From Nemertoderma westbladi (Eukaryota; Animalia; Xenacoelomorpha): a stretch of 64,000 nt of DNA. The DNA is taken from NCBI GenBank assembly GCA_032718475.1, contig JAUCBJ010000021.1, positions 1 through 64,000 of the forward strand. The letters are read 5' to 3'. The notes beneath the pieces are model-generated. The model was not told the origin of the DNA, did no database searches, and saw only the letters and a list, made by a program, of their open reading frames with translations. The position numbers and the translations under genes are program-made. Of the stretch, positions 2,282 to 51,851 are shown piece after piece; position 1 is the stretch's first letter; the number at the start of each line of letters is the position of its first letter.

Positions 2282-3438
2282 TGTTCGCGCTTTTAGACCT
2301 TTAGCAGTTTAACCTGCCAATTTTAATTGTCTTTTTTGTATATCAATTATTTAATGTACTGAAGTTACATCAGCCGAAGCCAGCCTGTGCGCGATCATTC
2401 ACCCACAGTTAAGGGAGACTGGATTCGGATGCTTTGATAGTGATTGCAGTGTAGACCTACTGTATTATTCGATTGATCGTTAATATATAATCTCTGACAA
2501 TATATTTACTTTCGGGGAAATATTAACAGTTCCTTTAGGACGTGGCGCTTTAAGTATAAAACAGAGTTATGACTTATACTAATCACAACTGGATGGCTAC
2601 TGAGTTTCGTAAAAAGCGCATTCTTTAGGAGATGCTTTATTAACCTTCACACTACTTCACACGACTTCACACTAGTTCACACTACTGCGCACTGATCTGC
2701 CGACCGTCACTGAATTTGAACATATATAAGGAGGATCGCAACTGACACATGTAGGGATTATGAAATAGCATTCAATTCACACAAAAACCACTATAATGTA
2801 AGTCGCAGTTGCTACCGGTAAACCTATTCCTCTAACCTTTAGTAATCAAAGAGATTGAGGGTTTTATGATTATTCATCGGTATTCTCCAAATATATCAGC
2901 AATATATACCAACATAACACCAAGTAATAACAGAATCAAATAATGCGGTGAACAGTCAGTATGTGTTACATGAAGTATGATTCAGCAATGATTCAGTAGT
3001 TGAATTGTTAATAGTTTTACGTTCTTTTAATCAAAGCCATCTGATGTTTCTGATGTTTAGGTCAAAGTCTGAAACTTCCACAGAAGTACAGAAGAATCCT
3101 AAGCCAGTGTTCTGGGCTTAGAAAAGATACACACTGACTGAATTGCGTGAGTTTCTGTAGACACTGTCCAACACAAAGTGAAAATCGCTCTGATTGGTCG
3201 AGCGAGCCGAACAAAGAACAAAGAAAAGCTCCACGCTGGCATTAAATCAGCTGACAGATTTCGTCAAATGAGTTACAGTCTTTAGTGTATTAAGCGAATT
3301 GCGGAAAAATGGCTAGTTATGTCCGCTAAAGCACGCATACAGACATAACGGGTAAAAATGGCTTGTTATGTCCACTAAAAGCACCTACACGGTACATTGC
3401 GGAGAAAATGACTGGTTATATCCGCAAAAGCTTTTACA
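2282..3438 (-). repeat. Element A 3' LTR (1157 bp)
   Basis: Direct repeat of 13567-14721; by eye about 13 substitutions and one 2-bp indel. Confidence 0.95.
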
Positions 3439-3446
3439 CCGCTCCC
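3439..3446 (-). other. Short purine-rich tract (GGGAGCGG) at the PPT position of element A
   Basis: Abuts the 3' LTR; same GGAGCGG in B (29142-29148) and C (36559-36565, -). Confidence 0.7.
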
Positions 3447-3590
3447 AGAAAATGGGATTTACTTCTATAAAATATAAAAAATCACAGTTTCTAAAATATA
3501 AAAATACTCTAAACAGTTAGTCTTTCTTACGCTAACGGTGTTTATGCAGTTTTTTGAGGCTAGCAAGAGTCCTTTTCTCTTTGGGGCGAG

Positions 3591-5036
3591 CTACTTTACT
3601 AGGAGGGCTATAACTCCTGGGTGAAGGGTGCAATACAATTGCATCGGAAGGTTTAGGATGATGGTCGGTGTATCCGCGGTCGAGGTACCCGGTTGATCGG
3701 TATCAACCTTAGTGGAACGAGGTCGAACAACCTTGAGAGAGCGTTTTAAGACAGCAGCTCTTACTGGTCCCTGACGGGTCATTTTTACGAAAGCGGTAGG
3801 TGGACCGTGTGTAGTGAGAAATTTCCTCGGTTTGATGATTCTTTCCAACTCGCGTTCTCGGGCTCCATCGGAATCGATATGCTTCTCCTCGAGCTGATTT
3901 TCCTCCGCTTGTCGTTGAAAGCATTCGTCCAAAACTCTTGCAGAAAGTAGAGTCGTCCAAGTTCGATATCTTCTTAGAGATTCTGGATTTCCCGATCGAA
4001 CTGAGATAAAGCTAATTCGTTTACCGCTTGGACTTGCTGCTGCAATTTACGTTTCTCTGAACAATCGTAGGTTCCTTTTCCGATCTTTTGACGAATAGTG
4101 TCCAACGTGTTTCGTACAACTCTCTCCTCCACCTCGGTGACAGGTTGTATCGGGTTTAACAGGGACAATTATATGGTTGAATGGCGATATTAGGTGTCCG
4201 CGTCCCAATCCGGCTAGGTAAGATGGGCGAATATCTAGGGAGCCCACAACCGGAGTGCCACCGACTAATTGTTCGGGTAACACTAGATCTTTGAACAGTG
4301 AGTACAGTTCGGGACGATCTGTCATACTATTAGGATCAAGAGTCTGAGGTCTCACCAAGGAACGGGGATGTCTGACTGAGTATTCCGGAACTCTGATCAT
4401 GGGTTTATTTAAGGATCGTTTGAGTCGAGCGAGCATAGGTGATACATCGAACAAGTTTCGCTCGAAACTCCCGTAAATATAGCGAGTAAAACTGTGTTTA
4501 GCTCAACGTTTCCGCAGATGTTTATGTCTTTCCGTTTGTCGGTTGGGTCTAGGACATTCATCGTGATAATACCAAAGACGCACGTCTTGTAGGGGAAACG
4601 CGGGTGATCTTTCTTCAGTTTTACAATGTTTCTCTCAAGAATTCCAAATATACGTGGGAGTCACTGCGTTTATCCGGTTCTTTAACGTCTTCTCTTTCGA
4701 GTCGATTTCGAATAGAATTTTCGCATTCGATTCTCAGTTTATCGTTCCGACTCCGCTGGGTATGATATTTAAATAGGACCATTTCCCTTTCGGTGTCGAC
4801 ATCGTCCGTATCATGTAAATCAATAGGATGACCAGTAGTTAAGAAGTCCATATACGTACCATTACGATGCGTATAGCGAGCGGTGAATTTTCTATAGTCC
4901 AATTCACGCGTGAGTTGTTCCTTTGACATTGGCGGTTCGATATGCCGCCGCCGCGTATTAAACTATCAACAAACGCTTGCAATGGTAGGGTATATCGCTC
5001 CCTGATATCAAGATCATCTTCTATCAACTCAGTCAT
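3591..5036 (-). pseudogene. Fragmented extra 3' ORF of element A, unknown product
   Basis: Chain of sense-strand ORF pieces (MTELIEDD, MSKEQLTRELDYRKF, MFDVSPML, AEENQLEEKHI) with homologous pieces in B at 27740-29045. Confidence 0.6.
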
Positions 5037-6757
5037 AGCTGCTATATGAGTTTATCGATATTATAATTAATCATAATTAGGCTAGCGGTCGTTGCTGCCT
5101 ACCCCTCAATGCCCCTGGACAGCGCAAGATCCTCAACGCTGATGTACTGTCGCCGATGTGCCTTTCACCAACGTAGTAGCTACACAACGACAACAATACC
5201 AGCGCGAGTCACTCCACTGTCCGTCCCAAGGGCTTAGATTTACTTCAGGTTCTTACTGCAGAGGTAGGGCTACTTTCACAACTGCGACTCGCTACTGTAA
5301 ACACACTTTAGTAGTAACATTCACCTATAAACGCACAAATTCCACACAACTGTCACAAATTGTACACATTCGGGCCATTTGTCCATTAGTCAAGTGCCTT
5401 CCAGAATGACACGTTATTATTATGTATCCCTGGATACTAGCAGTGTGCTATTTATTCCGGATGCTATTCAATGGGGCAAGCTTTCTATTGCTCTTTTAAC
5501 TCGCTTCTAATTCTAGCGTGGTTGTTGCCATGGTGACATTATGGAAAGCTAGCAGTAGAATTAGGGTAATTCTCATGCATACAGATCTGGGATGCTATTT
5601 AATTGTAATTCTTTAATTGTCAATATTCCCCTTTATACATGATTTTATGAATTTTATCGGCTATTGACAATATATTGGAGATTCTCGCACACTAATATAC
5701 TTAATAGGGTGAATCTCCGCTCCCATGATCTATTAATTAAGGGAATTTTGGGAATGTTATAAATTGCATAAAATGACAATTTATCAAATTCATGAGAGGA
5801 TATGAATTTAAATTTATTCCCGTAAATTTTATTATTTAATATTAAATAGACACAATTTTATTCCAGAGCATGTCTGGGGACTAGGATCCTGAATTCTGGG
5901 AAATTTGTCTTTTTAAGAGTATCGGTAAGTGCTACGATATCTTAATCGACTAGAATTTTAAAGGATCTGAATTTTAACAGATTTTAGATTTTCTTGGTTT
6001 ACAAACTCCTCAGAGTTTATTTGTCGGCATTTACTCTATTATATTTGTTTTAATAGATTTTTATAAATATTAAATAGTTAATATTTAAGATGGGCACCGA
6101 TTTATTCCAGAACTTGTCTGGGGACGTTAACCACTGATTCTAGAATTTTGTCTTTCAAGTATATCGGTGGGTGCCGCGATATCTTAATCGACTAGAATTA
6201 CAGATGGTCAAAGGGTTTAACAGATCGATTTTGCGTTTTACGCTACTGTTAAAGGGACATCACGCTACTATATGTATTATTTAATATACGGTATGAGAGC
6301 AATATTGCAAGAAGCAATGTCAGTGAGAAGAGGCAAGTCGTTTCCAAGGTCTACCCAGAGCTTGGTTTAGCTGAGACATGAGGATCTGAACTTTGCATTC
6401 CTAATACTCTACTTACCAATAATACTTGAATATAGTAGGAGCTTTATTGTACTTTAATAAGTACGGACATTTCATCTTACTGTAGTCACGTATTTATAAT
6501 ATGATACGGACAGTAAGGAAAGAGAAAAAGAATTATTTCTCGCCGTTGCACTAAATATATGATATAATATAAGTAAGTAAGTAATAAACACTAATATATA
6601 TTGCACTAATCTACTAAATAATCGCTAAAATAACATTCTACTAAATAAAATTAAAGAAAACGATTATAATAAAATTACATAATATAATACATACATAAAT
6701 ATAAAATAATAAAAACAAATATAAAATAATATAGTCACACACCCACTCCAGACGCTG

Positions 6758-9700
6758 TTACGTTGGGGAGTCCCTAGATGTTTGTTGGATTAGGGAGGTG
6801 GTCGTGGGAAGAGTATCTTGCCTTCCATAGTTTCCGGACAGTTCTCGGTCTCTTTCCAGTAAACATAAACGACCAACTGGGCGATTGAGTTGTTGTGTTT
6901 CGAATACAATTCCAGGTTTCCTCTTCGTCCTGGAATAGTGACGATAGAAACATCGCTTCAAATACACGACGGCCTTACAAAGCCGATTCCAGGAGCTATA
7001 GTGGTTTATCGCTCCCTGCAGGAGAGGTGAGAGTCCCTGCGAGACGTCTGGTGTTCCAGATTTCCAGTCTCTTTCTCTGATTTCCACAACAGAGTTATTT
7101 GTGGCGGGGGAGTTTAGACCCACAGCGTCGTCCCCTGAAATGTGTAGTACAGACAGATCAATCGCGGGTTTAAATAACTTTGATTTACTCGTCCGGGTTT
7201 TAGGTTTGACTTTCTCCGCTCCCTTGGCTTGTCTAATCTCAGCCGTGGTGAGATGAGGAGGCCATTCATCCTCTTCTTTACTTAGGAAGTCGGGTCCACC
7301 TAACCAGTCTGGAGTATCTATCAGTTCTTGAGGAGTTGCTCCTCTGGAAGCGATGTCGGCTGGATTAATCGTCCCAAGGCAATGTCTCCATTGATCTACA
7401 TTAGAGTTAATATCGTCATTATCTGAGGAGTATGGTGTTCCCTCAGTTGTGGTTGTCTCTCCCTCACTGATGTCTTCTTCCCATTCACTCACCTGATGGA
7501 CCTGATCTTTGGGTAGCCTTTCCATGAGTGTCCTACGGGAAGGTCCAGTGAAGTACCAACCTACTCTTGTTCTTCCCGCATAGGTTTGCAATGGTTGCGG
7601 TCGAGCAGGCCGTTTCTCTAATGTCTCAAGCGCCTCATGCGCATTTTGGCCGATGAGTATCTGTACCCCTGGGTAGTCGGTGTTGAATCTAGGTATCTCA
7701 TGCTGCTGGGTGAAATCGTCTTCATCCCAGTTATAAGGTTCCACTTGGCTGGTAGCGAAGTTCTTTATCGCCACCATTTTTACTGACCTTATACTGTGTT
7801 CTCCTAGTTCATCCTGGGGGGTGGACAACGCGCCTACATAGTAGTCTGTAGCTACTGTAGATTTCCAAACCTGCATAATTCCTGAAAGGTTCAACTTAGT
7901 TCGGAACTTGGGTTGTCCAGCAAAGATGTCTTCGGCTAGTTCTTTGTCGATGAATGTTCCTGTGCTGCCGGAGTCAAGGAGGGCGTTCACTATATAGCTC
8001 TTTTTTAACCCGTGGACTCTCAACTGCACTACGGGAAATTCCCGGATTCCTACATTGGAAGTTGGCGCTTTCCAAGATGGTTGTCGGTCCGGAATAGTTA
8101 GGGGGAGCTCGCTATCGGTTTCAGTCTCATACGTAAGCGCTCGATACACCGCGGTGTTTGTCATATAACAGGATTCATTTTCGTCGTGAGAATTCGTCTG
8201 TGTAGAATCCTTCCATCTCAGAGCTGTGGTCAGTGTCGTTCACATCACTGAATTGGACATGTAGTTCGGGCTCACTTACCTGACTCGTGCGGGTTCTTTC
8301 AAATTCTGTGTGCAGCAAGATATGATGTTTCGCGCCGCACTTAGCACACCTAGCATCTGAGTAACAGGTCCGCCGTTGGTGTCCTCGTCTGAGACAATTA
8401 TAACACAACCGCTTATCCCACATGACATCACGTCTATCCTTTAGGGATTTCTTTAAGAATTCATCACACCCACTCAAGCGATGGGGCCCGTCACACAATA
8501 CACATTTGGGCTTGATGTTGCTTACTTTAACCTGTGCTGTGTGGTGCACACTTGTTCTTTCCTCGGGCTTTCTTCCATGAATTCTCTTAGGAGACGTGGG
8601 AGGAGTTTTTGTTGTCTGTTCTCTCCTGTCACTGGTTCGAGACTTAAATTTACTTAAGTCTTTAGGTGCTTTGTTGACATAGTAAGATCTTTCGGTGTCT
8701 TTCCCGCTGTTATCCTCGTGGGAGGTTTGGCTTTCACCGTCGTCTGTATAACACACTGGTGTTACCTTTCTCCTAGAAATGGGTTTTTCACTTACCTCAC
8801 TTTCAGGAGTCTTCTCTCTAGACTGTTTTAGGAGTTGTAATCTTACCTCTCGGTTTAAGAATGACAGAAGGTCCGTCATGGTTGGATCTCTATGTTGTTG
8901 GTCCATCAAATAGAGAACCTTTTTGTCCCAGCGAGTACCTACTTCACCCTTTGGCAAAGCTGATGCTAAGGCTCCTACAACCATGGAATTCTGGTATTCA
9001 TGAGACTTACCCAACCAGTCTAATTGTCTACAGATCTCCTGAATCTCATCGGAAAACTCTATAATCCCGCTGCTAAGGAACTTTCGGGGCGCTACTAATT
9101 TCGCATACAAATACCTAGCTATGTTTGTCATATTACCATACCTGATGTTTAGTGTATCCCAAACTTGTCTTAATCCATCTGGATGTCCAATAAACTTTAA
9201 CGCCATTAACTTGGGAGATCCTTCCAAGCATTCGATGAGGAATCTAAGTTTCTCTCCGTTAGATAGCACAGAGTTCTGTATGTTATCTTTATAATATTCA
9301 TTAAAAGGTAACCATTTCATCTCATCTCCGTTGAACTTGACGATCTCTCCCACCTTTACCGCTTGACGGGCTTCGGTTCTAGCCATTTGACGCTTAAAAC
9401 TTTCTTGAGCCATCGTATTATTTAATATCGAGTTATCGGTATATGAATTTCTCGGATTATGATCAGGTCTATATGGAATATCATTATCAACAGGTTTATC
9501 GTTCCCTTAATGGGGTTTACTATAGGAGTTTCTACTTCACTAGCAGTATAGATGCGTGTAGGCTCCACACCTTGCGCATGAAATACTTCAGACCTAACAG
9601 GTTGACACATTGTTACAGGGGGTGGTGGTATACCCCTTTGTATATTTACTAATTTATCGCGTTCTAACGCGATACTCTGCTGCACTTCTTGCAACTCTAA

Positions 9701-11682
9701 CCTACTTTCCCTTACGGTTCCCTTGAACTGTTGAACAGTCTCCTGCATCTGCCCGAGCAGGAGATCCATCCCCCGCCGTCCCTCATCCACCCACTCAACC
9801 GCCGAAGCGGGAGCCGCCAACATAGTAGCGGGTAGACGAGGGACGACGGGCGATAAATTGTTGATGTCTCGCTCGGCGTCCAGGACAAGAATTGTCTCAG
9901 GGGCTGTTCTACTGGGCACAGGTAGTTTAGTACTGTGCAAAGGGAATTTAGAGTTAGGTTCTGGAAGTACAGGGGTCTCTATCACAGAGGGGGTGGCTTC
10001 GAGAACAGGCCTAATTATTTCAAGCTCATCTACTATAGTAGGGAGTCTTTCTACAATAATTTGGTCTGTAGGCTCAGGATTACTTAAATCTACACTAGCT
10101 AGTTGCCTTCTCACAGCTGGAGGCAAATTAGGCAATTTGTGCCGGTGCAACGCTCTTCTACGTCCGCTGGAACGAGATTTATTTCCTCTACCTTCAGGAT
10201 CTGTTGTATCGCCTTCATCAGAGGATGTAAATCCCTGTCTCTTTGGAGTAGATCGACTTAGCAGCTGCATCTGAGTAGCTGTTCTCTGTTTATTTAAGTA
10301 ATCTTGCTTCACTTGAAGATTTTCCAACTCTAGTTGGGCTGTCTCTTCAGATGCCCTCCGTTCCGCTTCTGCCACTGCCTCTGCCGCTTTTCTTTCAGCT
10401 TCTACTGCTGCCGCTTTTCTTTCAGCTTCTGCCGCTGCCGCTGCCGCTTTTCTTTCAGCTTCTGCCGCTGCCGCTGCCGCTGCCGCTGCCGCTTCTGCTT
10501 TCCTTCGGTCTTCTATTATCCTTTTCTTTAGTTGTTCTTCCTGTTGCTTAATGATGAGGAGGCGTTCATCCCATTTAGCGTTATCAGCGGCCGACATTTC
10601 CGCATCTAACGAGTCCAACACCAATTTGGCTCCCTCACTATTGGGGCGAAGTCCAGCTAGCCGTCTCCTTAACTCTTTGTCACCTATAAATCGTTGATAG
10701 TCCGACAGATAGATGTCAATAGCATCCTTCTTAGGAGGTTTCTCTGATGTGAAGTCGCTTTCCACCTGAGAAAAGGTAGCGTCTGTTGATTCTCCGTGGG
10801 TCATGCGCTCGGTTAGCTGAGCTTTCCATTGTGTAGTTTCTTGGACTTTAAGACTCACCCGTTGGAACCAAGTCTTTACGGCAACCTGCAACGACGTGTC
10901 TTGGCTTCTCTTCGAGGCTTTCTCAAAGGCTGAAAGGATCAGTCTGATCCTTAAGATTCATTCTCGAACTTGATAAAGCAGCTCTTACTGCTCTTGAGGT
11001 CTTTGACGTTGTTGAAACAGGTGTTCCTCTAAGCGCTCCAAAGAGCTGAAGAATCCCTGGACATATTCTCCTGCCGACCTCTTCCACACAGCTGGATCTT
11101 GAGTGTCTCTTACTACTCCCATCCTGTATAAGTCTTCCCAGGCAGCTTCCGATAATTTAAACGGGAGTCCGGGTCCGGGGAAGTTCCATTGCGTCTCGAC
11201 AATAGAATTCAGTTCCTCCATCGTGTATCCCACATAACTGTCCCTGGTCGATCGCTTACTTTTCGCCCAATTGATTGGATGTTCTTCCACAGCGATCATT
11301 ACTCTAGCGAGTACGGCTCCAGGAAGAATTAGAAGTGGATCTGGATAAACCGCTTCTGTCATCCTTGCTCCGATCTCGGGTGTCAACTCTACAGTATCTG
11401 AACTACTGGACTACTGAACTACTGCTGCTGTTTAACAGCTGCTTCTTGGTCCCGCTTAACTTGAGCCCGAGTGCCTATAATAGACCTATGGTGATTTACT
11501 AGCCTAGGGTCTGATACTACTACTGGAGGGATGACCCTTCTTACAGTAGGAGGGGACTTGGACTTTGGTCTGGGATGTTCTATACTTTGATCTTGGTCAC
11601 AGATCTTTTTAAGACACTGTCTAACACTCATTCTAACACTTTCTAAGAGACTATCTGACAGTGTTTGTTGTGTGTCAGACAT
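6758..11682 (-). pseudogene. gag-pro: Element A gag-protease-(deleted pol) polyprotein, broken by stops and frameshifts
   Basis: ORFs 11419-11682, 10985-11386, 9422-10891, 8175-9413, 6758-8164; KFNGDEMKWLPF (DUF1759-like), CVLCDGPHRLSGC/CYNCLRRGHQRRTC/CAKCGAKHHILLH, ALLDSGS, WRHC..NPADIASRG, RPVGRLCLLE. Confidence 0.9.
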
Positions 11683-11789
11683 GATTTAATTTACAGTTGA
11701 ATGCCTACTACTATAATGACAGTTAAAGCAAGTCTAGTAATTCAGTATCAACTATAAGCCTAGTAATTAATTACCGATACCGTTACTCA

Positions 11790-13555: not shown

Positions 13556-13566
13556 AAAACTATTAA
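13556..13566 (-). other. Element A non-tRNA primer-binding site (sense TTAATAGTTTT)
   Basis: Abuts the 5' LTR, has no TGG, and is 11/11 complementary to LTR 14291-14301. Confidence 0.8.
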
Positions 13567-14721
13567 TGTTCGCGCTTTTAGACCTTTAGCAGTTTAACCT
13601 GCCAATTTTAATTGTCTTTTTTGTATATCAATTATTTAATGTACTGAAGTTACATCAGCCGAAGCCAGCCTGTGCGCGATCATTCACCCACAGTTAAGGG
13701 AGACTGGATTCGGATGCTTTGATAGTGAGTGCAGTGTAGACCTACTGTATTATTCGATTGATCGTTAATATATAATCTCTGACAATATATTTACTTTTGG
13801 GGAAATATTAACAGTTCCTTTAGGACGTGGCGCTTTAAGTATAAAACAGTTATGACTTATACTAATCACAACTGGATGGCTACTGAGTTTCGTAAAAAGC
13901 GCATTCTTTAGGAGATGCTTTATTAACCTTCACACTACTTCACACGACTTCACACTAGTTCACACTACTGCGCACTGATCTGCCGACCATCACTGAATTT
14001 GATCATATATAAGGAGGATCGCAACTGACACATGTAGGGATTATGAAATAGCATTCAATTCACACAAAAACCACTATAATGTAAGTCGCAGTTGCTACCG
14101 GTAAACCTATTCCTCTAACCTTTAGTAATCAAAGAGATTGAGGGTTTTATGATTATTCATCGGTATTCTCCAAATATATCAGCAATATATACCAACATTA
14201 CACCAAGTAATAACAGAATCAAATAATGCGGTGAACAGTCAGTATGTGTTACATGAAGTATGATTCAGCAATGATTCAGTAGTTGAATTGTTAATAGTTT
14301 TACGTTCTTTTAATCAAAGCCATCTGATGTTTCTGATGTTTAGGTCAAAGTCTGAAACTTCCACAGAAGTACAGAAGAATCCTAAGCCGGTGTTCTGGGC
14401 TTAGAAAAGATACACACTGACTGAATTGCGTGAGTTTCTGTAGGCACTGTCCAACACAAAGTGAAAATCGCTCTGATTGGTCGAGCGAGCCGAACAAAGA
14501 ACAAAGAAAAGCTCCACGCTGGCATTAAATCAGCTGACAGATTTCGTCATCTGAGTTACAGTCTTTAGAGTATTAAGCGAATTGCGGCAAAATGGCTAGT
14601 TATGTCCGCTAAAGCACGCATACAGACATAACAGGTAAAAATGGCTTGTTATGTCCGCTAAAAGCACCTACACGGTACATTGCGGAGAAAATGACTGGTT
14701 ATATCCGCAAAAGCTTTTACA
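13567..14721 (-). repeat. Element A 5' LTR (1155 bp)
   Basis: Sense TGTAAAAG...GCGCGAACA; repeat of 2282-3438. Confidence 0.95.
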
Positions 14722-18778: not shown

Positions 18779-18789
18779 ATAACGGATAT
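18779..18789 (+). other. Element B non-tRNA primer-binding site (ATAACGGATAT)
   Basis: Abuts the 5' LTR; 11/11 complementary to ATATCCGTTAT at 18038-18048. Confidence 0.85.
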
Positions 18790-18925
18790 TTAGTCTGTAT
18801 TGCAGTGTAGGCATTAAATACAGTTTAATATTGTTCTGGTAAGAACATTAAAGGATATAGCTTCTTTATTGCAGTAAGCAATAAAGTTGAAAGTACCGGT
18901 CAACCGGTAAACCTGAACGGTCCAT

Positions 18926-19039
18926 CTGTAGGTCGGTAGGCCCAACTGCCAGAACCGGTACTGCTGTAGGCCCGTAGGTCCAACTGCCAGAACCGGTACT
19001 TCTGTAGGTCTGTAGGCCTAACTGTCCTAACCGGTACTT
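18926..19039 (+). repeat. 3 x 38-bp tandem repeat in the B leader
   Basis: Units resembling CTGTAGG..GTAGG...AACTG....AACCGGTACT start at 18926, 18964 and 19002. Confidence 0.9.
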
Positions 19040-19211
19040 CCGTATAAGTACAGCAGTATTATTCGATTTGATTATATATGCCGGTAGGTCTTAATAATTA
19101 ATCGGGGACGCCTGGTTTTTATTGGGATTTTACTTAGGCCTATTTCTGTCAGTTTTATTTATTTGTAGGTCAGTATTGAACAGAAGGCGTGTAAGCCTGA
19201 TCAGATTGTGC

Positions 19212-29045: not shown

Positions 29046-29148
29046 ACGCCGTCTGCGTAAAAAAGACTAACTGTTTAGAGTATCTTTATATTTTAGAAAC
29101 TGTGATTTGTTATATTTTATAGACTTAAATCCCATTTTCTGGGAGCGG

Positions 29149-41826: not shown

Positions 41827-44800
41827 TAGAAGGCCGCTCCAATAGAGAAACTGCGGCTTTACTATTTGTCAGTATGTTACTAGTGTCTGGTAGAACATTT
41901 TGTGATATGTCTGGCAAAATGTCTGGTTGGCTGTCTAGTAACGTGTCTGTTTGACCGTCTGGCGATATGTCTGGTGTAGAAAGGCTCGCAAGTCTTCCTC
42001 TCTTGACCTTTGAAGTTATATCTTTCCATTTCGCCTTCGGTTTTTTCTTGAGTTTAGCCGCCGTCCTTTTCTTTGCCTTCCCCTTTTTTGGTTTCTTGAT
42101 TTCGGCGTCCTTAGGGATGGTGTTAGACTTGTTGTCGTATAACGGTGGCCAATCTTGCGTCGATTTCTGCAAGAATTGGGGTCCGTGTTGCCAAAATTCT
42201 TTGTTCTCCGGTTTACAGAATTCCTCAGGCATCATTCCTCGCGACGCAATATCGGCTGGGTTTTGTGGTCCGGGACAATGTCGCCAATCTTCTTTTATTG
42301 AACGGTCTAGAATCTCTGCGCGACGGTTAGCTACGAATGTCTTGAATTCAAGTGTGTCGTTGTTTATGTAAAATAAAACCAACGTCGCGTTAGTCCAATA
42401 AAATATCTGTAAACTTGACTGTAGTTCTGTCTGTATAAGGTTCACGATGGTGGTTGACAGGGTTGCGGCTTGTAGCTCAGCTCGTGGTGTCGTCATATAC
42501 TTAGTAGGCATTGTTTTTGCCTTAGAAGTAATGAGCGAAACATCGAATTCTTCTGAGTCTACTTGTCTGCGCAAGTACGCTACCACACCAAAACCGTTGT
42601 CACTGGCGTCAGAAAAACAATGTAATTCCAAGTTGTCAGGAAACGTTGTTTGTAATGGAAAGTAGACTCTGGGTATGGAATAATCCTCTAGCGAAGATAA
42701 TTCTGCCTCCCAGGTCTTCCATAAGTCCACTTGGTCTGATGAGATCGGCTCGTCCCATGTCAGTCCATCTTTCCAAATACTGCGCATATAAATGCGGGCT
42801 TGCAGTATTATTGGACTGATGAATCCTAATGGATCGAACAATCGGCTCAATTTTGACAAGCATGATCTCTTTGTCAGTGTGTTTTCTTGACTGTCCAGTC
42901 TTACCTTCACTCGAAAGTTGTCCGTGTTTGGGTCCCAAAAGAGCCCCAACACCTTGGTCGTCGGTAGTGGTTCGAACTCTAGGTCTATGTCACCACCTCC
43001 ACGCTCAGTCGTTCCGAATGAGTCTACTAATTCGGCACTGTTTGAGGCGAATTTGGTGAGGTTAAAACCTCCGCCCGCTAAGCAGTCCCGTAATTGATGT
43101 GCTACTGTTGTAGCACGTTCTACTGTGTCGCAACTCTGTAAACCGTCGTCGACGTAAAAGTCACGTTCCACAATCCTAATTATCTCTGGGTCATACAAAT
43201 GTTTCTGATCCCTAGCGGCTTGCTTTAGGGCATACATCGTACAGTTTGGGCTGTCCCTGGCACCGAAAACGCGAACTTGCATTTGGTAAGTCGCCGGTGG
43301 TAGACTTAAGTCTCCTTCCGGATACCAGAGGAACCTCAAACTGTCTCTGTCTTGCTCTAACGCTCTCACTTGGTGAAACATAGCTTCAACGTCGCAAGTA
43401 AAAGCTACTTGACGCTGACGGAAGCGCATAATCACCCCCATAAGATAATTATTCATGTTTGGTCCATCCATCAACTTGCTATTGAGGGACATTCCCTCAA
43501 ACAGAGCAGCACAGTCATTGACTACACGTACTTTGTCTGGTTTGTCGGGGTGTCTCACAAAGTGATGTGGCAAATAGTATGTCTGGTTAGTCACTATCTC
43601 TGGGTTAGTCATTCGGATAGCGTATCCCTTGGTCAAATACGTCTCCATCTGAGTGTTGTACTGCAGATGGGCTTTCTCGTCCTTTAATAGACGTTGTCGT
43701 ATTGAGTGTAGACGTCTTAAAGCTAGTGGGTAGTTATTTATGAGTTTAGGACTTTGGCTACGCCATAACATCCCTACCTCATAATGTCCGTCTTTCGTCT
43801 GGCGGATAGTATCTTCCATGATCTTCAAAGATTGTTTCTCTTGTTCCGACATACATGGTTCGTAGCTACCAGGTTCAGCTGTATCTTGTTCTAACCACCT
43901 GATAGTCTTCTCCGTTAATTCTTTGTCCAATACAGCTTGTTCCACTTGATGATTTCTCAACTCGTCATCATCGATATCGACGGGCATTGTTGAGGTTGTT
44001 GGGGTAGGTAGACTCGCAAGCCTTCCGGCGTTATCATCTGTCTTCGATGGAATCTCTAGCTGACTCGTCTTCTCCCCAAGTTCTAAACTCACCTGGTGGA
44101 TTAGCTGCTCCTTGTGACTTATCATACTAGTTACACGTCTGTCATGTTTTGTATGTAAGGTAGTATGGTCCACGTCGTGTGAAAAGGAATGAATTGAATT
44201 TGTAGTTAATAAACTACATGTACTTTGTACATCGTCTTCCTCGTCACTTATGTCCAGTGTGCGCACAGGCGCTCGAGTATACCACCCTATCGGCGTCCTA
44301 CAGGCGTATGCGTTTCCCGCTACGACTGCCGATGGTCTGGTTTCCCACACTTGATGTAGGTTGAATTGGTCTGTCCCGATCAGCATTGCTACCGATCTAT
44401 AATTGACAGGACATTCAGGTACACCAAGGTGTCTGAAATACTTACGGTCCTCCAAGGATTGCTCTGGGACAGGACCTAGTAGGTTACTAAAGTCTTTGGT
44501 GGCCGCAAAAGTCAAATCCTTGAAGGGTAACAAAGACCTCTCCTTTTCGCTGTGTTGCGATTTTGGAAGAAGAGTGTCTAAGTCCAACTTAACTCGTGTC
44601 ACTGGTATTGCACGTTGTCCGTGCATACTACTTACGGTGTAACTGACGCGCTTACCTTGTCTGAGATCCGTTACTACATCAGCTATCTGTTCATCCACGT
44701 AGCTGTGAGATGAGGCTGAATCCAAGATAGCGTAGATTCTCTTGCTCCCCTTTATGCCAGTAATCTTAATCGGAATTACACTGAATCCCTTTAATTGGTC

Positions 44801-45550
44801 AGTCGTCAGAAGCGCGATCGATGGTTGTTCGTCTCCATCAGAATATACGTCGTCGTCTTCTGACTCTTCGTCCGACGATCCGGATTGTTCTGAGAAGCAA
44901 TCCTTGATATGTGTCACAAAGGTTGGAGTCGTTTTCGATTCTCGATTTTTGTAGGCCGCATTACATTTCGCTGCTGCTTCCGGGTATTCCCTGGCGAAGC
45001 GTTTTGTCGGCGTGTGGCTGTCTGTATGGAGCAGACCGTCGTGGTTGCGTCCACAGGATGGACAAGTGTCGGTATTTGGGCAATCCTTGCGAACGTGTCC
45101 GTGTCGCGTACACCGCCAACAAGAGTCCAATGGCCGTATCTGCAGCCGTCGTTCTTCCGAGTTTAACTCGCGAAACTGTCGACAACCTCTCAACTTGTGA
45201 CCGATATACCGCTTGCCTAGATGCTCGCAGTATTGGCAGCCGCTGAAGTTGGTACTGAGTTGCTGTCTCGTCTGTTTTGTCCCAATGGGCGCAGATACCC
45301 TACTACCGTCCGAGAATTGTCGTGATTCCGTCGGTGTGGCGTAAGTGGCCGTCTTAGTGGATGTTGTCTGGGGTTTTTGTCGGTTTGAGGATGGCAAGGT
45401 GATTCCTTCTGCCACGATGTGCTGGTCAGTGTAGTTGGATCGAGTTTCTACCACTGCCTCCCTGGATATCAAAAGGTACACATCCTCCAGTTTTAAGAAT
45501 CCACCCCGCTCTTCTCGCTGGTATTCGATCTTCCTCCACTCCCGACGAAG
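41699..45550 (-). CDS. pol: Element C Gag zinc knuckles, protease, RT and RNase H
   Basis: CWRCTRHGHVRKDC, AILDSAS, YYLPHH..KVRVVND, DVEAMFHQV, FGARDSP, FYVDD, FDPLG, FSDAS, TPRAELQAA, NPADIASRG. Confidence 0.95.
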   Translation of the reverse strand, partial: LRREWRKIEYQREERGGFLKLEDVYLLISREAVVETRSNYTDQHIVAEGITLPSSNRQKPQTTSTKTATYATPTESRQFSDGSRVSAPIGTKQTRQQLSTNFSGCQYCEHLGKRYIGHKLRGCRQFRELNSEERRLQIRPLDSCWRCTRHGHVRKDCPNTDTCPSCGRNHDGLLHTDSHTPTKRFAREYPEAAAKCNAAYKNRESKTTPTFVTHIKDCFSEQSGSSDEESEDDDVYSDGDEQPSIALLTTDQLKGFSVIPIKITGIKGSKRIYAILDSASSHSYVDEQIADVVTDLRQGKRVSYTVSSMHGQRAIPVTRVKLDLDTLLPKSQHSEKERSLLPFKDLTFAATKDFSNLLGPVPEQSLEDRKYFRHLGVPECPVNYRSVAMLIGTDQFNLHQVWETRPSAVVAGNAYACRTPIGWYTRAPVRTLDISDEEDDVQSTCSLLTTNSIHSFSHDVDHTTLHTKHDRRVTSMISHKEQLIHQVSLELGEKTSQLEIPSKTDDNAGRLASLPTPTTSTMPVDIDDDELRNHQVEQAVLDKELTEKTIRWLEQDTAEPGSYEPCMSEQEKQSLKIMEDTIRQTKDGHYEVGMLWRSQSPKLINNYPLALRRLHSIRQRLLKDEKAHLQYNTQMETYLTKGYAIRMTNPEIVTNQTYYLPHHFVRHPDKPDKVRVVNDCAALFEGMSLNSKLMDGPNMNNYLMGVIMRFRQRQVAFTCDVEAMFHQVRALEQDRDSLRFLWYPEGDLSLPPATYQMQVRVFGARDSPNCTMYALKQAARDQKHLYDPEIIRIVERDFYVDDGLQSCDTVERATTVAHQLRDCLAGGGFNLTKFASNSAELVDSFGTTERGGGDIDLEFEPLPTTKVLGLFWDPNTDNFRVKVRLDSQENTLTKRSCLSKLSRLFDPLGFISPIILQARIYMRSIWKDGLTWDEPISSDQVDLWKTWEAELSSLEDYSIPRVYFPLQTTFPDNLELHCFSDASDNGFGVVAYLRRQVDSEEFDVSLITSKAKTMPTKYMTTPRAELQAATLSTTIVNLIQTELQSSLQIFYWTNATLVLFYINNDTLEFKTFVANRRAEILDRSIKEDWRHCPGPQNPADIASRGMMPEEFCKPENKEFWQHGPQFLQKSTQDWPPLYDNKSNTIPKDAEIKKPKKGKAKKRTAAKLKKKPKAKWKDITSKVKRGRLASLSTPDISPDGQTDTLLDSQPDILPDISQNVLPDTSNILTNSKAAVSLLERPSIDKQPDTLPESTRRFARHVIRYFAGCSAKHFTRHVTKCSTRH

Positions 45551-48484
45551 TCAATGGTGGAGTCGTCCTATGATCTTTAATAGGACTGTAGGGGTATTCC
45601 CGTAGTCAAGTTGTCCAATGGATCTCAAAGTAGTGATAGCGTTCTTTATCTCGTCAGCCAGTTTCAATAAGTCTACGGGTTTAGTAATAGCCCCTCCCTT
45701 ACAGAGTTCCTCTATCACTGACCTGGCCATGCTGACTGTACCTCCGTAGATCGAAGTTAAACGATCGTACGCTAGTTCGAAAGCGTCCGGTACACCAACG
45801 AAGGTCTCCGCCAAACGTTTAGGTTCTCCTGACAACGTTTGAAGCAGGTAATTAAACTTCTCCCGTGATGTAAAGGCGCACACGGCGATCTGAGATTCGA
45901 TATAGTCTACGAAAGTATGCCAGTGTTTTGAGCTACCGGAAAACTTCGGTGGTTGTTGTACCGGCAATCCCTGTCTGGCTGCGAATTTCGCTATCTCCTC
46001 AGCAACGTTCAGAGTTTCGCGTCCTTGGTTGGTAATCTGGTTGATATCCCTTCTTGGCGCTTTTCCCTGATACGAAGTATGTTTTGAAGGTACCGGTCTT
46101 TGTGGTTCCTTCGGGTGTCTATTGTGTTCGAATTCAGTGTTCCTCGAACTATCGGTTTGAACTTCCTCCAGACGTTCCTCAATCTGAGCCAACTTGTTAA
46201 CAACTGGTCGCAGGATGTCGGCGAACTGTTGTGTACTGATTGCGTCCGTTGGTTGTAACGTCTTCTGTGTTGGTGTATTTTGTGGAGGATTGTCTACAAA
46301 GGAGTTGTCTGAACGCTCGCGTTTATATTCATCGGCCGCCCCTGTTCTAAATACCTCGCGTTTCGGGTAATCCGATTCGCTCGAAGTACTACTATCATCT
46401 GGATATGGTGGTCGACGTGTTCGCGTCCGTTGCGTCGTACGAATTCTAACGTTTCGTTTCGGAACATCGTCCACTGATCTCCGTTGTTCGGTAGGCTCAC
46501 AAGTCTTCCTCGAAGTCGTAGATTGCGATGTAAACTGGTTGAACGGTCGCGTATCCACTGGTCTCCGTTGTTCGGTAGGCTCACAAGTCTTCCTCGAAGT
46601 CGTAGATTGCGATGTAAACTGAACCGGTGGTCGGACGACAGCGTTTGAATCCAAAGGCTTTGTAGGCCTAAACGTCATTGGGTACGTGTAGTGCATAACG
46701 AGTTTTGGTGTCGAAGGTGGACTCACCTGTTTAGTCGTCAGTAGTGCAGGTCTGGTCAACAAACTACTACGATCTGTAATCGGTGGGTTACTTACCTTGA
46801 CTTTTAGAATAGGCGACGACGTTGCTCTTGGCGGTGTAAACTTGTCCGGAATAACAAACCTGTGTTCCGTCGCACCACGGATAGGAGAAATGTTACTACT
46901 ACCCGCAATCGAAACAGGTTCCTTAGTCGTAACTGGTGCAAACATAGGAGTTACTTGAGGGAATCTTTGACATAAGTCTTTAACTAATTGTCGTTCCCGT
47001 CCAGGTGCTCCTATCGAACCTTCCTTCATTCGTTCCTGGATTTGGCGGTGCCTTACCTCCATCTGGTCTAAATCATGTCCATCTCGAGATCTCATCGATC
47101 GATCGCGGGCTTGTAGATCCAGGTCTTCCTTGGCGTTGGCTAATTCTCTCGCCTTCTTCTCGAGTTCGAAACGAAGTTTAACTTCTTTCTCGCGTTGTTC
47201 CGTTTGTTGTTGTTGCGCCTCGAACTCCGCTTGTCGTATAGCTGATTGAGCCTTTATTTGCCGTTTTTTCATTTCGGTTCTCGCTTCTGAAGCTAACCTT
47301 TGTCGCTCTAACTCGGACGCTGCCGCTGCCGCTGCCGCTGCTGCTTGTCGCTCTAACTCGGCCGCTGCCGCTTGTCGCTCTAACTCGGCCGCTGCCGCTT
47401 GTCGCTCTAACTCGGCCGCTGCCGCTTGTCGCTCTAACTCGGCCGCTGCCGTTCGTTGCGCTAACTCGGCCACTGCTGCTTGTTGTGCAATGTCCAACTC
47501 TAACCTTTCCATTTCGGCTACTTCCAACTCAGCTTGTTCTTGCAGATGAGAGATTCTCGCAACATTCGCAACGCGTAGTTTCTCTTCTTCTGCTGCTACT
47601 TGTGCCATTAAGAATTGAGTTTGTTCCTCCCACTCTTGTTGTTGTCTGTAGATCTGCTGTTGTCGAGCAATTTCTGACGTAGCCATACTCACCTCGCCAA
47701 TTTCGCTGCGAATACTCACCAGTGATTGATCTAGTGTTCCCGGTACCGGTTCGATTTGTGCGAGTGAAGTTTCCCTCGTAGCCTCCGGCACGGTTTCCCA
47801 ATCTCCGACGTCCTCGCCGCACATACGTAAGTGATCCGTCAGGTGTTTCAATTGTCCATCCAGCCTATACAGTTCCTGTTCTTCCTCGGGCTGCAATAAT
47901 TCGTCCGAAACTGACTCACCTAACAACTGGTCCGCTTGTTCCTGTTGTATCTGCCTAATCGTCGACTTAAACTGAATCAGTTTCTCTCTAGCGATCATTA
48001 GTTTCTCGAGGATTCTAAGTTGAGTATCCATGTCCTGTCTCTGTCTAGCTAGATCTTGTAGACCAATTAGGTTATCTACGGACTTATATACTTTACTCTG
48101 TACTCTAACCTGGAGGGTGTAGAACTCGAATCGAGACATCGGAGCGGTCAACTCGTCTAATATGCGTTGGCCTTCTCCAATACTCCTGGTTATATGCGCC
48201 ATGTATCCTCCGACGCTTCTAACCACACTTTCTGTGCTTCCTGCTGAACTTACCATCTCCGTTTCCCTGTATCTAGGTTGCGGGACCGTTAGGAAATCCT
48301 CAGTCCTGCCGTCGCCTCGTACTACGGCATCCGGTACTCCCGTTGGATGTACTGGTGACGCGCACGGTGTAGGTTCGGTAGGCTCACGAGTCTTCCCCTG
48401 TGGTTCTTCCGCTTCTGACTTATCTCCGTCACATGAGTCATAGTCGGTTTGTGTATTTTTCGTATAGTCTTGTTTGTCACTCAT
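45551..48484 (-). CDS. gag: Element C Gag N-terminal part (coiled coil, AAAELERQ repeats, DUF1759-like); in-frame TGA at 45551-45553
   Basis: PPKFSGSSKHWHTF..KFNYLLQTLSGEPK; the frame continues after the stop into LRREWRK and the downstream ORF. Confidence 0.9.
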   Translation of the reverse strand: MSDKQDYTKNTQTDYDSCDGDKSEAEEPQGKTREPTEPTPCASPVHPTGVPDAVVRGDGRTEDFLTVPQPRYRETEMVSSAGSTESVVRSVGGYMAHITRSIGEGQRILDELTAPMSRFEFYTLQVRVQSKVYKSVDNLIGLQDLARQRQDMDTQLRILEKLMIAREKLIQFKSTIRQIQQEQADQLLGESVSDELLQPEEEQELYRLDGQLKHLTDHLRMCGEDVGDWETVPEATRETSLAQIEPVPGTLDQSLVSIRSEIGEVSMATSEIARQQQIYRQQQEWEEQTQFLMAQVAAEEEKLRVANVARISHLQEQAELEVAEMERLELDIAQQAAVAELAQRTAAAELERQAAAAELERQAAAAELERQAAAAELERQAAAAAAAAASELERQRLASEARTEMKKRQIKAQSAIRQAEFEAQQQQTEQREKEVKLRFELEKKARELANAKEDLDLQARDRSMRSRDGHDLDQMEVRHRQIQERMKEGSIGAPGRERQLVKDLCQRFPQVTPMFAPVTTKEPVSIAGSSNISPIRGATEHRFVIPDKFTPPRATSSPILKVKVSNPPITDRSSLLTRPALLTTKQVSPPSTPKLVMHYTYPMTFRPTKPLDSNAVVRPPVQFTSQSTTSRKTCEPTEQRRPVDTRPFNQFTSQSTTSRKTCEPTEQRRSVDDVPKRNVRIRTTQRTRTRRPPYPDDSSTSSESDYPKREVFRTGAADEYKRERSDNSFVDNPPQNTPTQKTLQPTDAISTQQFADILRPVVNKLAQIEERLEEVQTDSSRNTEFEHNRHPKEPQRPVPSKHTSYQGKAPRRDINQITNQGRETLNVAEEIAKFAARQGLPVQQPPKFSGSSKHWHTFVDYIESQIAVCAFTSREKFNYLLQTLSGEPKRLAETFVGVPDAFELAYDRLTSIYGGTVSMARSVIEELCKGGAITKPVDLLKLADEIKNAITTLRSIGQLDYGNTPTVLLKIIGRLHH

Positions 48485-49281
48485 TTCGGTAGTTGTAAGT
48501 CAAGTAAAGTGAGTGTCAAGGTATCAAATTTACCGTATTTTATCTAAACGGTACTAATTACAGTCATATAAAATTAGCCTACCGGCCGATTTTATAGCAG
48601 ATGGATAAAATTAGCCTAGACGGCCAATTTTACAGCAAATAAATGTCACGGAATAAGTATATAATAAAATTAGCCTAGCGGCCAATTTTATAACAAATAA
48701 ATCGGATAACGATATGCGTTATCAAAAGGTAAATTAAATACAATAATACGGACTAATTCAGCAATGAACAAAGAAATCATACGGAATGCATAAATACTTG
48801 AGACAGTGGAACCCACAATAATTTTAACTAATACGGTAATGCCTAACTTATTTATGCAACTTTTCGAACTCACCCACTCCAATAATTCTCCAGAAAAACA
48901 GATTCCCAGATACAAACCGGACGTGAACCTTTCCGTTTTCAGCGTTGCGGACGAAGCGCGATTTTCCCAACCAAAGTTGTTGAGTTATCTATCTCCCAAA
49001 CTTGCTAAACACGGTCTTGCTCCCGTTACAGTCTAGAAATGAGTTCTGAATCCTGAAAAACAAAAGAGTTAGGTTTTACTTTTACGAAAAATTTTGTACC
49101 GGTACAATATGGTATTTAAACCCTTTTAAACACCGGTATTCAATTCCAAAATATTTTACACGCGGTTCAAATCAAATTTTATTTCAAAAAATTAGCACTT
49201 AGCTAATCAAATATAAATTTTTACCTCAAAATACAAAATTTTCAAATAACTTTAGTCCTACCGAACCGTAGTTCAGTAAAA

Positions 49282-49292
49282 CACATTCCTAC
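49282..49292 (-). other. Element C non-tRNA primer-binding site (sense GTAGGAATGTG)
   Basis: Abuts the 5' LTR; 11/11 complementary to LTR 50324-50334 (sense CACATTCCTAC). Confidence 0.85.
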
Positions 49293-50770
49293 TATTCGAA
49301 GAGACAGTAACAATACCTGCAATATCCTACTGTAAAGTTTGTGAATCAAATCATAAATCCGACCTTCTCACCAAAACAGTAAACTCTAAGTAAGCGAATA
49401 TATTGCAGTATCGATCTCTTATAACCGGTGAGGCAGAAAACAGTCTACGAGCAGACAAACTTCGATAAAACAAAATCCCGCGCAGCGAATCCTAAAATCA
49501 GGCTGACTCACTGACGGACTAAGGGGCTCGTATACCTTGCCGCGGTGTGATTTATATGGTTGGGCGAAAGGGACGCTAGCTAGGTACAGAGGCAGAGATT
49601 TGGAGATGTCTAACTAGCGGGCAAAGCACAGTAAGGACAAAGTTAATTTTATATATTTTGAGGTGTAAATAATTTCTAACGCGCGCGTGTGTTAATTCTA
49701 AACAGTCAAAAGCAGTTTTGCTCCTTCACATATATAATTACTGGGTACGGTGTGCATTTTACAAATATTCTAATTTTGTAACTTGTAGGTCCAATACTCA
49801 CGAATGATAAGGTTCCTTCCCCTCTTGCGTATTTCCAGGACTCAAATTCAGGCATAAGGTTAATGCTACGCCCAGAATTCGGCAATTTTAATTTACCAGG
49901 TCCCTAATACTAAGAAGAAATGTGTTAGTTTACTACTGTAGGCGTACAGTTACAAATAGCTATCCTGGCTCTTATCTAGAATTTTAATCACCTAGGTAGG
50001 CTGGGTAACTTCCTATCAAGACGTTGGCGGGGACACGGTAGATGTTAGTATATCCCTAATAGCCTCAATTTATTTTGCGCCTAGTTGTAAACTGCCCTAC
50101 CGCCTGAACGGTACAATCCTAATTCAGGTGAAACACAGCAACCCTCCTAGCCTACAAGTTCTAGTGCAATGGACACCGTTGTACTACAAATAGTCGCAGA
50201 CGCACCTGCACTTAGCAAGAGTTAGGCGTACAGTTTGCTGCACCCTACCAATGTGTATGCTTCGTACCGGTGTGCCTACGTCCTATCTGCGTACTAGTAT
50301 CTGCCTGCTCTCTCTCTCCCCCCGTAGGAATGTGAAGGTCTACTGTGGTTTTTTCCTGAATCAAGACAGTACGGTCCCTAAGATGTAATTTTAGGCTCAC
50401 AGCGTGTCACTACTTCTACCCTTTTATCTTTGGTCTTACGCTTAGGTAGCAAGGCGTCGAACGCTGTCTAACCTTTCAGGCGATGGGCGAATAACTAAGG
50501 TGGTATTGCGGGTTGTCTCCTGTCTACATTCCCTTGATGTTCCCGTTCATCGCTGCGGCCCGATCTCTAGCCGGCCATCCTGTTCCTAAGAGTGTTCACC
50601 GTAGTGAATCATGGTGAAAAGAAAAGCAGGTAGCGGTATTTCTGAATTTATTGCAGATAATAATACAAAATGTAATCTGAAAACTAATGACAGAATAAAC
50701 AAATATCAGATAACTCAGAAGAGATAGAACATTGATAGATAGGATTGATAACTAATGAACAAATCGCACC

Positions 50771-50917
50771 TTTATATACCAAATTTGTGCCGCAATCAAT
50801 CGAGAAAATTCTCGATTGTTCTATAGGTTCTAACAGGTTTTTAAAGATAACTATTGGTCCAGCTAATATATAACTTGCACGACATTGGTTACAATCAAAT
50901 AACTACAGTCTCATTGG
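50771..50917 (-). promoter_or_regulatory. Putative Pol II promoter: three CCAAT boxes about 30 bp apart and TATATAAA
   Basis: ATTGG on + at 50853, 50884 and 50913; TTTATATA at 50771-50778. Motif match only. Confidence 0.55.
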
Positions 50918-51003
50918 TTAATCTAGGTACAAACAAATGCAATTTAATTTGTAGCGGTCAATTTAAATGAGTTGAAATTCTGCACAAAAAATAATTCGCA
51001 CTT

Positions 51004-51072
51004 ACTAGGATTCGAACTCAATACCTACTACACATATAATTTCCAACGCTCTACCGACTGAGCTACTGAACC
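51004..51072 (-). other. tRNA-derived A-box/B-box cassette in the C LTR (copy at 36363-36431)
   Basis: Sense GGTTCAGTAGCTCAGTCGGTAGAGCG...GAGTTCGAATCCT; intact D-stem GCTC/GAGC, degenerate anticodon and acceptor arms. Confidence 0.7.
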
Positions 51073-51851
51073 ACTTGACTAATAGGCGTACAATAGATAT
51101 AGTAAATACAAATGAGGACTCAATGCAATCTTTTACAAAGTTAATTCGAATAAAATAAAATTTTGAAAATCCACGGCATTTAGGGAATATAATTCTATAC
51201 TGTATTACTGATTTACTGGTCAGTTCATTAATCACAGAGTTGCAGACCGGTTATAGTTTTTGACCGTTATCTAGTATCAATTACATATTTGCTGTTATTC
51301 TGTATTGCGATACGGATGACGGATTGCGGATGACGAGACATTAGACGGATCCCATTTCTCAAGTACCTGATCAAGCACTGACGAAAATGTGGGAGCCCGA
51401 CAGGAGGGGACGGAGAACAAAACAAACATCGGTTGAGTATAGGAGAACGGGGGGAAGTATGGAGAGGAGGTGTTGACATGCGTAGAAGTGAGAGGAGTGC
51501 AATTCAAGCGTGGGGAGCGAGCAGTGAGAGAGGAAGAGTCCCAAGGGACCAGAGAGAGAATAAGGGACAACAGGGTCCGTGAGAGAGTTTTTGAGTAGAG
51601 TTAAAGAAAATTGTGTGGAGAGAGAGCACAATTGTCTCAAACAGAGACACCAGATACCTTGGTGCAACATAGCTCACGATTGCACCAAGGAGGGCTAGTA
51701 ATAACCCACCCAGGGGGGGTGGTCAGGAAAGCCGACCCCGAGAAAAGAACTCCACCCCACACCCAATACTAGATTGGGTTCCAGCGGAATTGAAGCGCAC
51801 TTAAGAGAGATGCTATCTTCTTACCGGGAAGATAGCATGGGGGGAGGGGAG

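Follow-up and report, generated by a model that had tools for sequence, protein, structure and literature searches.

Candidate tRNA-independent self-priming of BEL/Pao elements in Nemertoderma westbladi and in related families from other hosts

Members of the Belpaoviridae are described as carrying an 18-nt primer-binding site (PBS) for host tRNA-Arg or tRNA-Gly, long terminal repeats (LTRs) of 0.2–1.2 kb and genomes of 4.2–10 kb (PMC8742986). Three elements (A, B and C) lying in a 64,000-nt window of the genome of Nemertoderma westbladi (the whole stretch analysed, positions 1 to 64,000 of contig JAUCBJ010000021.1) raise the question of what primes their reverse transcription. No TGG, the mark by which a tRNA-type PBS was judged, follows the LTR in A, B or C. 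Like the Belpaoviridae, these elements show a DUF1759 gag, a protease and, in C, a YVDD reverse transcriptase (RT), Peptidase_A17 and an integrase with DUF5641, together with polypurine tracts (PPTs), all ending GGAGCGG, and 5-bp target-site duplications (TSDs) at each of the three. Unlike that profile, they lack a TGG-type tRNA PBS, their LTRs reach 1.9 kb and the elements span 12–16.5 kb. On the same DNA, ARAGORN reported no tRNA, and an Rfam search to E 1 gave five weak matches, with no ribozyme close to the sites described below (Table 1).

Table 1. Positions of the features of elements A, B and C and of solo LTR D in the window
Element	Feature	Positions	Strand	Remarks
A	5' LTR, TG..CA	13567..14721	-	paired with 3438-2282, 15 differences
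A	candidate self-primer 11-mer	14291..14301	-	LTR position 421
A	candidate PBS	13556..13566	-	adjoins LTR
A	gag (DUF1759) and protease ORFs	6758..10957	-	protease runs into RNase H C-terminal remnant
A	polypurine tract region	3439..3452	-	
A	3' LTR	2282..3438	-	second 11-mer copy 3018-3008
B	5' LTR, TG..CA	17553..18778	+	paired with 29149-30374, 5 differences
B	candidate self-primer 11-mer	18038..18048	+	LTR position 486
B	candidate PBS	18779..18789	+	
B	gag (DUF1759) and protease ORFs	21663..26086	+	
B	polypurine tract region	29135..29148	+	
B	3' LTR	29149..30374	+	11-mer copy 29634-29644
C	5' LTR, TA..TA termini	49293..51199	-	paired with 36558-34652, 3 differences
C	TATA box with upstream CCAAT boxes	50770..50777	-	candidate promoter, ~440 nt upstream of 11-mer
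C	upstream arm	50339..50345	-	predicted second helix
C	candidate self-primer 11-mer	50324..50334	-	LTR position 866; 3' end AC as in relatives
C	candidate PBS	49282..49292	-	starts GT
C	downstream arm	49274..49280	-	predicted second helix; overlaps competing local hairpin
C	gag-pol	39733..48499	-	DUF1759, protease, YVDD RT, Peptidase_A17/RNase H, integrase with DUF5641
C	extra 3' open frame	37465..38913	-	482 aa, CCHC-like repeats, no Pfam match
C	3' LTR	34652..36558	-	11-mer copy 35693-35683
D	solo LTR, A/B lineage	60947..62029	+	third sequence at aligned primer site

Element C is a BEL/Pao element with an RT. Its domains follow the order PR-RT-RH-IN (Peptidase_A17 at 2e-42 and DUF5641 at 3e-21, plus DUF1759 and YVDD), and its RT-RH region stands at 42–44% to BEL polyproteins. 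In an RT tree of 88 rows, built without named clade references, it occupies a long and weakly placed branch. The gag-pol reading frame is interrupted by an in-frame stop near 45551 and shifts near 41700–41870, changes that may be programmed or inactivating. The LTR termini of C are corrected here to TA..TA rather than TG..CA. The original prediction counted all three as BEL/Pao elements; as a correction to it, A and B hold neither RT nor integrase, the same loss in each, and show DUF1759 and protease only. A and B are thus non-autonomous, and among the three only C could supply RT. Read cover in four sequencing runs is very deep on both A/B LTRs, against about 30–150 on the spacer. A TATA-like box lies 290 nt downstream of the 11-mer of A, within a stretch that is conserved between A, B and D.

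In all three elements, an 11-mer inside the 5' LTR is the exact complement of the 11 nt abutting the same LTR, forming an 11-bp duplex at offset 0 with no better shifted register. Throughout the window, copies of each 11-mer are confined to the two LTRs of its own element, plus the complement at its PBS. Recomputation returned the same six primer and PBS coordinates as the original prediction, and confirmed its exact duplexes with neither spacer nor TGG. Its claim that the A and B pairs have covaried was also borne out: the two sites align and differ at 5 of 11 positions, all five compensated so that full pairing is kept, while swapped sites form only 5 pairs. The first base of the 11-mer lies at a pyrimidine-purine step in A and B, and the PBS starts with GT in C, but not in A or B.

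Such pairing might in principle arise by chance: at the base composition of these LTRs, which are 1.2–1.9 kb long, its probability ranges from 4e-4 to 1.5e-3 (1.5e-3 for A, 7e-4 for B and 3.6e-4 for C). A chance look-alike with 8 of 11 pairs is found next to solo LTR D; it was dropped as a degenerate PBS, the flank of D being the TSD. Dinucleotide shuffles with offsets 0–5 allowed gave p values of 0.007 (A), 0.001 (B) and 0.004 (C). Chance is effectively refuted by the three of three elements found here together with related BEL entries from other hosts, of which 13 of 18 form 10–14 perfect pairs between the PBS and their own LTR, against a cross-family control where 3 of 410 pairs reach 10 and none goes higher. 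Among the other five relatives, three fit under relaxed rules, and two hold a tRNA-type TGG site and score 4 and 5 in own-LTR pairing.

These 18 are the related entries with a fixed LTR end. Scanning without fixed ends gave many false matches, and 11 further scan-labelled loci stay outside the count, as do entries whose LTR ends are cut or ambiguous (e.g., L001, L056, L062, L074, L079, L083 and L087) and family duplicates (L004, L009, L010, L023, L024, L064, L068, L069 and L090). The LTR end of L060 was placed at a CA 4 nt inside the repeat end, L077 is without a terminal CA, and F034 and F037 represent one family. GT begins the PBS in 15 of 15 self-type relatives, with the register for some of them picked by the analyst among offsets 0–4.

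The pairing could also represent a structural or regulatory helix, involved in packaging, translation or splicing control, while priming would rely on a fragment of a tRNA or some other host RNA, as in the half-tRNA priming known for Copia elements (PMC6317226). This seems improbable, as in every self-type entry the helix starts 0–4 nt past the LTR end, precisely where the end of a primer has to lie; moreover, at least 12 different PBS sequences each match their own LTR alone, and the TGG-type relatives have no helix. tRNA-independent self-priming, as originally predicted, is supported by these comparisons, which would extend it to most of the related BEL families sampled.

In nine of the 13 pairing relatives, the complement exists solely when two parts of the LTR are joined at a canonical splice junction, a form that only RNA can present and thus a pointer to RNA. 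The LTR introns of these nine relatives follow the pattern GTRAG..YAG, measure 71–451 nt and have pyrimidine-rich acceptors; a previous reading of the TCAG/TTAG sites of the relatives as initiators was replaced by that of splice acceptors. No splice junction was found inside the 11-mers of A, B or C, where the best spliced score was 8. In 12 of 15 self-type relatives the primer is followed, 2–125 nt further downstream, by a poly(A) signal, so that a repeat is left for strand transfer. The primer 3' end was also considered as a poly(A) site and rejected, as there is no T-rich spacer and a signal lies 10–30 nt upstream in A only.

Both LTRs of each element hold the 11-mer. Another reading is that the primer acts in trans or stems from the 3' LTR copy, its donor being a sister RNA, a short transcript of the LTR or the U3 copy. 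The conserved TATA-like box downstream of the A 11-mer would suit such a donor, and spliced donors acting on unspliced templates would explain why introns are kept in many lineages of relatives. On the other hand, F081 and F082 have just 45–49 nt of LTR after the primer and a poly(A) signal at a distance of 2 nt, so that a promoter could not fit downstream, and this origin of the primer is considered improbable.

In Tf1, the primer comprises the first 11 nt of the RNA, accompanied by the side helices of a pretzel-like fold, and the Tf1/sushi group belongs to the Ty3/gypsy chromoviruses. This geometry was implicit in the original prediction and is the part of it that found no support. In its strict form, the RNA would begin, at its capped 5' end, with the 11-mer, which a single RNase H cut would free. 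It would account for a duplex of exactly 11 bp in A, B and C, for the pyrimidine-purine step in A and B, and for the predicted folds, where a start at the 11-mer lets the core duplex form at about 0.8 in A and 1.0 in C (about 0.1 in B), while 60 nt of added upstream sequence abolishes it in all three; these folds favour an RNA start close to the 11-mer and speak against an internal primer. F082 also has a TATAAG 26 nt upstream. However, a strict TATA at -20 to -40 is present in only 1 of 18 elements, and a 5'-terminal primer would leave the spliced relatives a first exon of only 3–8 nt. The pretzel-type side helix, between the bases after the primer and the U5 end, is missing in A and B, which rank last (199/199 and 213/214, respectively), and is weak in C, where 37 of 350 windows are as good and a U5-side helix appears in the long fold. 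Furthermore, bases upstream of the primer show family-specific pairing with bases downstream of the PBS: in the 15 relatives alone, the shuffle p is ≤0.0005 and the permutation value 0.0008, and the signal persists with a single entry for each related pair and with three window sizes, fading with distance. In A, B and C alone this second helix gives a weak signal (p 0.04), A standing at 0.53 and B at 0.22 in the ranking of own-LTR windows. The continued pairing in the relatives suggests that the primer is probably not the RNA 5' end, unlike in Tf1, and strict Tf1 geometry is regarded as unlikely.

According to the proposed mechanism, A, B and C, all of them young BEL/Pao elements, are likely to be primed by an internal 11-mer of their own RNA rather than by a tRNA. 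The RNA would start at some distance upstream of the 11-mer rather than at the 11-mer itself; the PBS would pair with the own-LTR 11-mer, while a second, looser helix would join the upstream bases to those after the PBS. Reverse transcription would then start after a predicted RNase H cut at the 3' edge of the 11-mer, a step carried over from Tf1 (PMC5341516). The internal loop between both helices would set the 10–14 nt primer boundary, through a second cut or a stop of plus-strand copying. Copied into the plus strand, the primer would rewrite the PBS in every cycle, which would account for a separate matched pair in every family. For A and B, RT and integrase would come from an autonomous helper.

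Similar arrangements have been described in other superfamilies. Tf1, Tf2 and Tj1, of the Tf1/sushi group, lack a tRNA PBS, and a short LTR segment complements a PBS abutting the 5' LTR (PMC10085805, PMC4600332 and PMC5341516). A, B and C resemble them in a PBS that abuts the LTR and complements it, but differ in their BEL/Pao domains, with no chromodomain match in the Pfam scan, in their very long LTRs, in a primer that is apparently not 5'-terminal, in a second helix located upstream instead of the downstream pretzel helices, and, in many BEL relatives, in a primer built across a splice junction. For the Copia TAR lineage (Houba, Osr-1) and Tcn1, self-priming has been predicted from LTR complementarity of at least 10 bp, 0–5 nt after the LTR (excerpts of PMC6317226), and the duplexes of A, B and C fall within these limits; those elements represent other superfamilies and plant hosts, and the excerpts mention no splice-junction form. 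The fungal GalEa Copia elements, also without a tRNA PBS, hold a conserved palindrome in the leader and no LTR complement (PMC5445492), unlike the LTR partner found here, which varies by family. No published self-priming BEL/Pao element was found in a literature search that left aside Repbase reports, subscription journals and supplements.

On balance, we lean towards a broad animal BEL/Pao branch having independently exchanged the tRNA for an internal self-primer, with a second upstream helix and an AC end, spliced by the host in many lineages and intron-less in A, B and C, the RT-less A and B reaching high copy through their own pair and a borrowed RT. The ICTV profile states that Belpaoviridae are primed by host tRNA (PMC8742986); self-priming here would explain the failure of PBS searches on these elements. 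The 10–14 nt duplex would provide a precise predicted RNA start and cut site. It also bears on the hypothesis that, in the evolution of LTR elements, tRNA priming came after hairpin or self-priming (PMC3601003). Self-priming here would bring tRNA-independent initiation to a third superfamily of LTR elements, where its geometry would depart from that of Tf1, and, in the relatives, reverse transcription would be tied to host splicing.

The 11 nt abutting the 5' LTR (PBS) of A, B, and C, the three BEL/Pao elements of the window, are the exact reverse complement of an 11-mer of the element's own LTR (3/3), located at LTR positions 421, 486, and 866, respectively, and none of them starts with TGG, as the original prediction held. 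The duplex comprises 11 pairs in each element, and other registers score no better. The chance of such pairing from LTR composition is 1.5e-3 (A), 7e-4 (B), and 3.6e-4 (C), and dinucleotide shuffles with offsets 0–5 allowed gave p = 0.007, 0.001, and 0.004. The sites of A and B are alignable and differ at 5 of 11 positions, yet pairing is complete in each and swapping the sites leaves just five pairs, which agrees with the proposed covariation of this pair. The LTR/PBS pairing is a real feature, and the probability that the complementarity arose by chance is negligible.

Features of the window
Feature	Coordinates	Strand	Remarks
Element A	14721-2282	minus	near-identical LTRs; 5-bp target-site duplication (TSD)
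Element B	17553-30374	plus	near-identical LTRs; 5-bp TSD
Element C	51199-34652	minus	near-identical LTRs; 5-bp TSD
Solo LTR D	60947-62029		A/B lineage; TSD; third sequence at aligned primer site
tRNA-like segment	51072-50985 (and 3' LTR copy)		U3 of C; A box, B box, T run
LINE-type endonuclease fragment	16015-17430		between A and B
Near-perfect 268-bp palindrome	60117-60384		two tRNA/SINE-like halves in head-to-head orientation, carrying A and B boxes
Piece related to the palindrome	62305-62446

Related BEL loci from other hosts, which we infer to be animal host DNA, were gathered via RT alignment (80 of 561 metagenome loci and 12 genome-contig loci). Animal-type BEL retrotransposons with LTR pairs occur in contigs filed under bacterial MAGs (L081, L082, L086, L087, L088, and L090), likely as host contamination. 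Eighteen entries from 17 families had a 5' LTR end that could be located from the direct repeat or from a sister locus. Under a strict score that counts perfect pairs at offsets 0–4, either contiguous or spanning a GTRAG..YAG intron, 13 of the 18 reach 10–14 pairs with their own LTR, while across families 10 pairs are reached in 3/410 combinations and 11 in none. The complement is contiguous in four of these 13, as in A, B, and C, and in the other nine it exists solely across an intron of 71–451 nt, with GTAAG/GTGAG donors and pyrimidine-rich acceptors. Relaxed rules add T030 (14 pairs, GTAGG donor) and, judged by eye from the LTRs, F086 (one mismatch) and T020 (weak donor). Since the complement arises only after splicing in such entries, their sequences point to RNA as the pairing partner.

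The expectation that relatives retain the complementarity and lack a TGG PBS stands for most entries, but not for two of the 18, which have a tRNA-type TGG site and own-LTR pairing scores of 4 and 5; their site may resemble a tRNA-Tyr PBS. On a FastTree of 88 RT rows (L086, L089, L090, and L091 being too short), the TGG-type rows form one subclade (support 0.99), spliced and contiguous forms are interspersed, and C sits on a long, poorly resolved branch. That a tRNA fragment serves as primer, or that the pairing has a role other than priming, is improbable. In L030/L050/L069 and L020/L024, TGG follows the LTR and a tRNA-primed annotation would be expected; the site nonetheless pairs with their own spliced LTR.

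Most likely, the element's own RNA is the primer. Once an LTR segment had annealed to the PBS, the RNase H of an RT from the element itself or from a helper would cut this core duplex at its 3' edge, by analogy with Tf1/Tf2 (PMC5341516), and minus-strand synthesis would begin at the cut. The primer would then be copied into the plus strand, so that the PBS would be rewritten every cycle, giving each family a matched pair. Self-priming in some form is highly probable, and a primer internal to the RNA is the rather likely form of it; priming in trans or from the 3' copy is improbable.

The position of the primer within the RNA is addressed by a second helix, seen first in A and C, where the bases immediately upstream of the 11-mer pair with those after the PBS. 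The small internal loop between both helices would fix the 5' boundary of the primer. When tested on the relatives alone (15 entries), this pairing gave p<=0.0005 in composition-keeping shuffles and 0.0008 by permutation, and was stable at 10, 14, and 18 nt and when each related pair was reduced to a single entry; the signal declines with distance, with a single weaker peak at 21 nt. In A, B, and C alone, p = 0.04, carried by C. This pairing suggests that the RNA has additional sequence 5' of the core duplex. The strict Tf1 form, with the primer at the RNA 5' end plus pretzel helices, draws on long-range folds, in which the core duplex is predicted in A and C only if the RNA starts at the 11-mer (in B it hardly forms), and which count against the upstream extension. 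A and B lack the Tf1 pretzel helix that joins post-primer bases to the U5 end, and in C it is weak; a strict TATA lies 20–40 nt upstream of the primer in 1/18, and the clearest candidate promoter of C is ~440 nt upstream; the strict form is considered unlikely.

In C and 15/15 self-type relatives (PBS pairing with the own LTR), in registers chosen by the analyst, the PBS begins with GT, and the candidate primer would thus end in AC; A and B do not share this start. A poly(A) signal lies 2–125 nt past the primer in 12/15 self-type relatives, and A and B have one in common, 74 and 93 nt from the LTR end. All three elements have an AG placed exactly 5 nt ahead of the 11-mer (14306-14302, 18033-18037, and 50339-50335), without a pyrimidine tract, and TTATAAGGACA is immediately 5' of the primer in B and in the distant L060 family.

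According to the ICTV, Belpaoviridae use a host tRNA primer and an 18-nt PBS (PMC8742986). Published work describes self-priming in Tf1/sushi and predicts it in Tcn1 and in the Copia TAR lineage (PMC6317226, PMC10085805, PMC4600332, PMC5341516). Term look-up in the two main BEL/Pao surveys returned no passage on PBS, priming, or tRNA (PMC554778, PMC3118150), and the portions consulted of PMC3601003, PMC5445492, PMC6934838, PMC13524379, and PMC3286476 contain no BEL self-priming. Nor did listings and abstract openings, a search with Repbase reports and subscription journals outside it, yield a report of a self-primed BEL/Pao element. The feature of A, B, and C resembles Tf1 self-priming in its working; these elements are not members of that group, and their geometry appears to be different.

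C encodes DUF1759, protease, YVDD RT, Peptidase_A17, and integrase with DUF5641, with an in-frame stop separating gag from pol and a change of frame ahead of the integrase. Its RT-RNase H shares 42–44% identity with BEL polyproteins, and the named best matches are mainly from marine invertebrates. Its termini are TA..TA, not TG..CA (51199-49293, 36558-34652), with a clean 5-bp TSD and a PPT end as in A and B. The 3' region (37465-38913) holds an extra 482-aa open frame with CCHC-like repeats, whose atlas matches to zinc-knuckle proteins (<0.9) are a lead only. The tRNA-like segment in U3 gave no ARAGORN call, no PBS match, and no further copy in the window.

A and B have both lost RT and integrase, the protease continuing into an RNase H remnant (40 full-length homologues). 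One common deletion fused the protease frame to this C-terminal remnant (6758-8239 in A, 24461-26086 in B), and the lineage has diverged by ~15% since, though both insertions are young. The depth of the A/B LTR family in host DNA contigs is thousands of times that of the spacer (as summed depth, not copy number); A and B are therefore a non-autonomous lineage that has spread. The third primer-site sequence of D, a solo LTR of this lineage, predicts that full-length members of its family carry yet another PBS variant.
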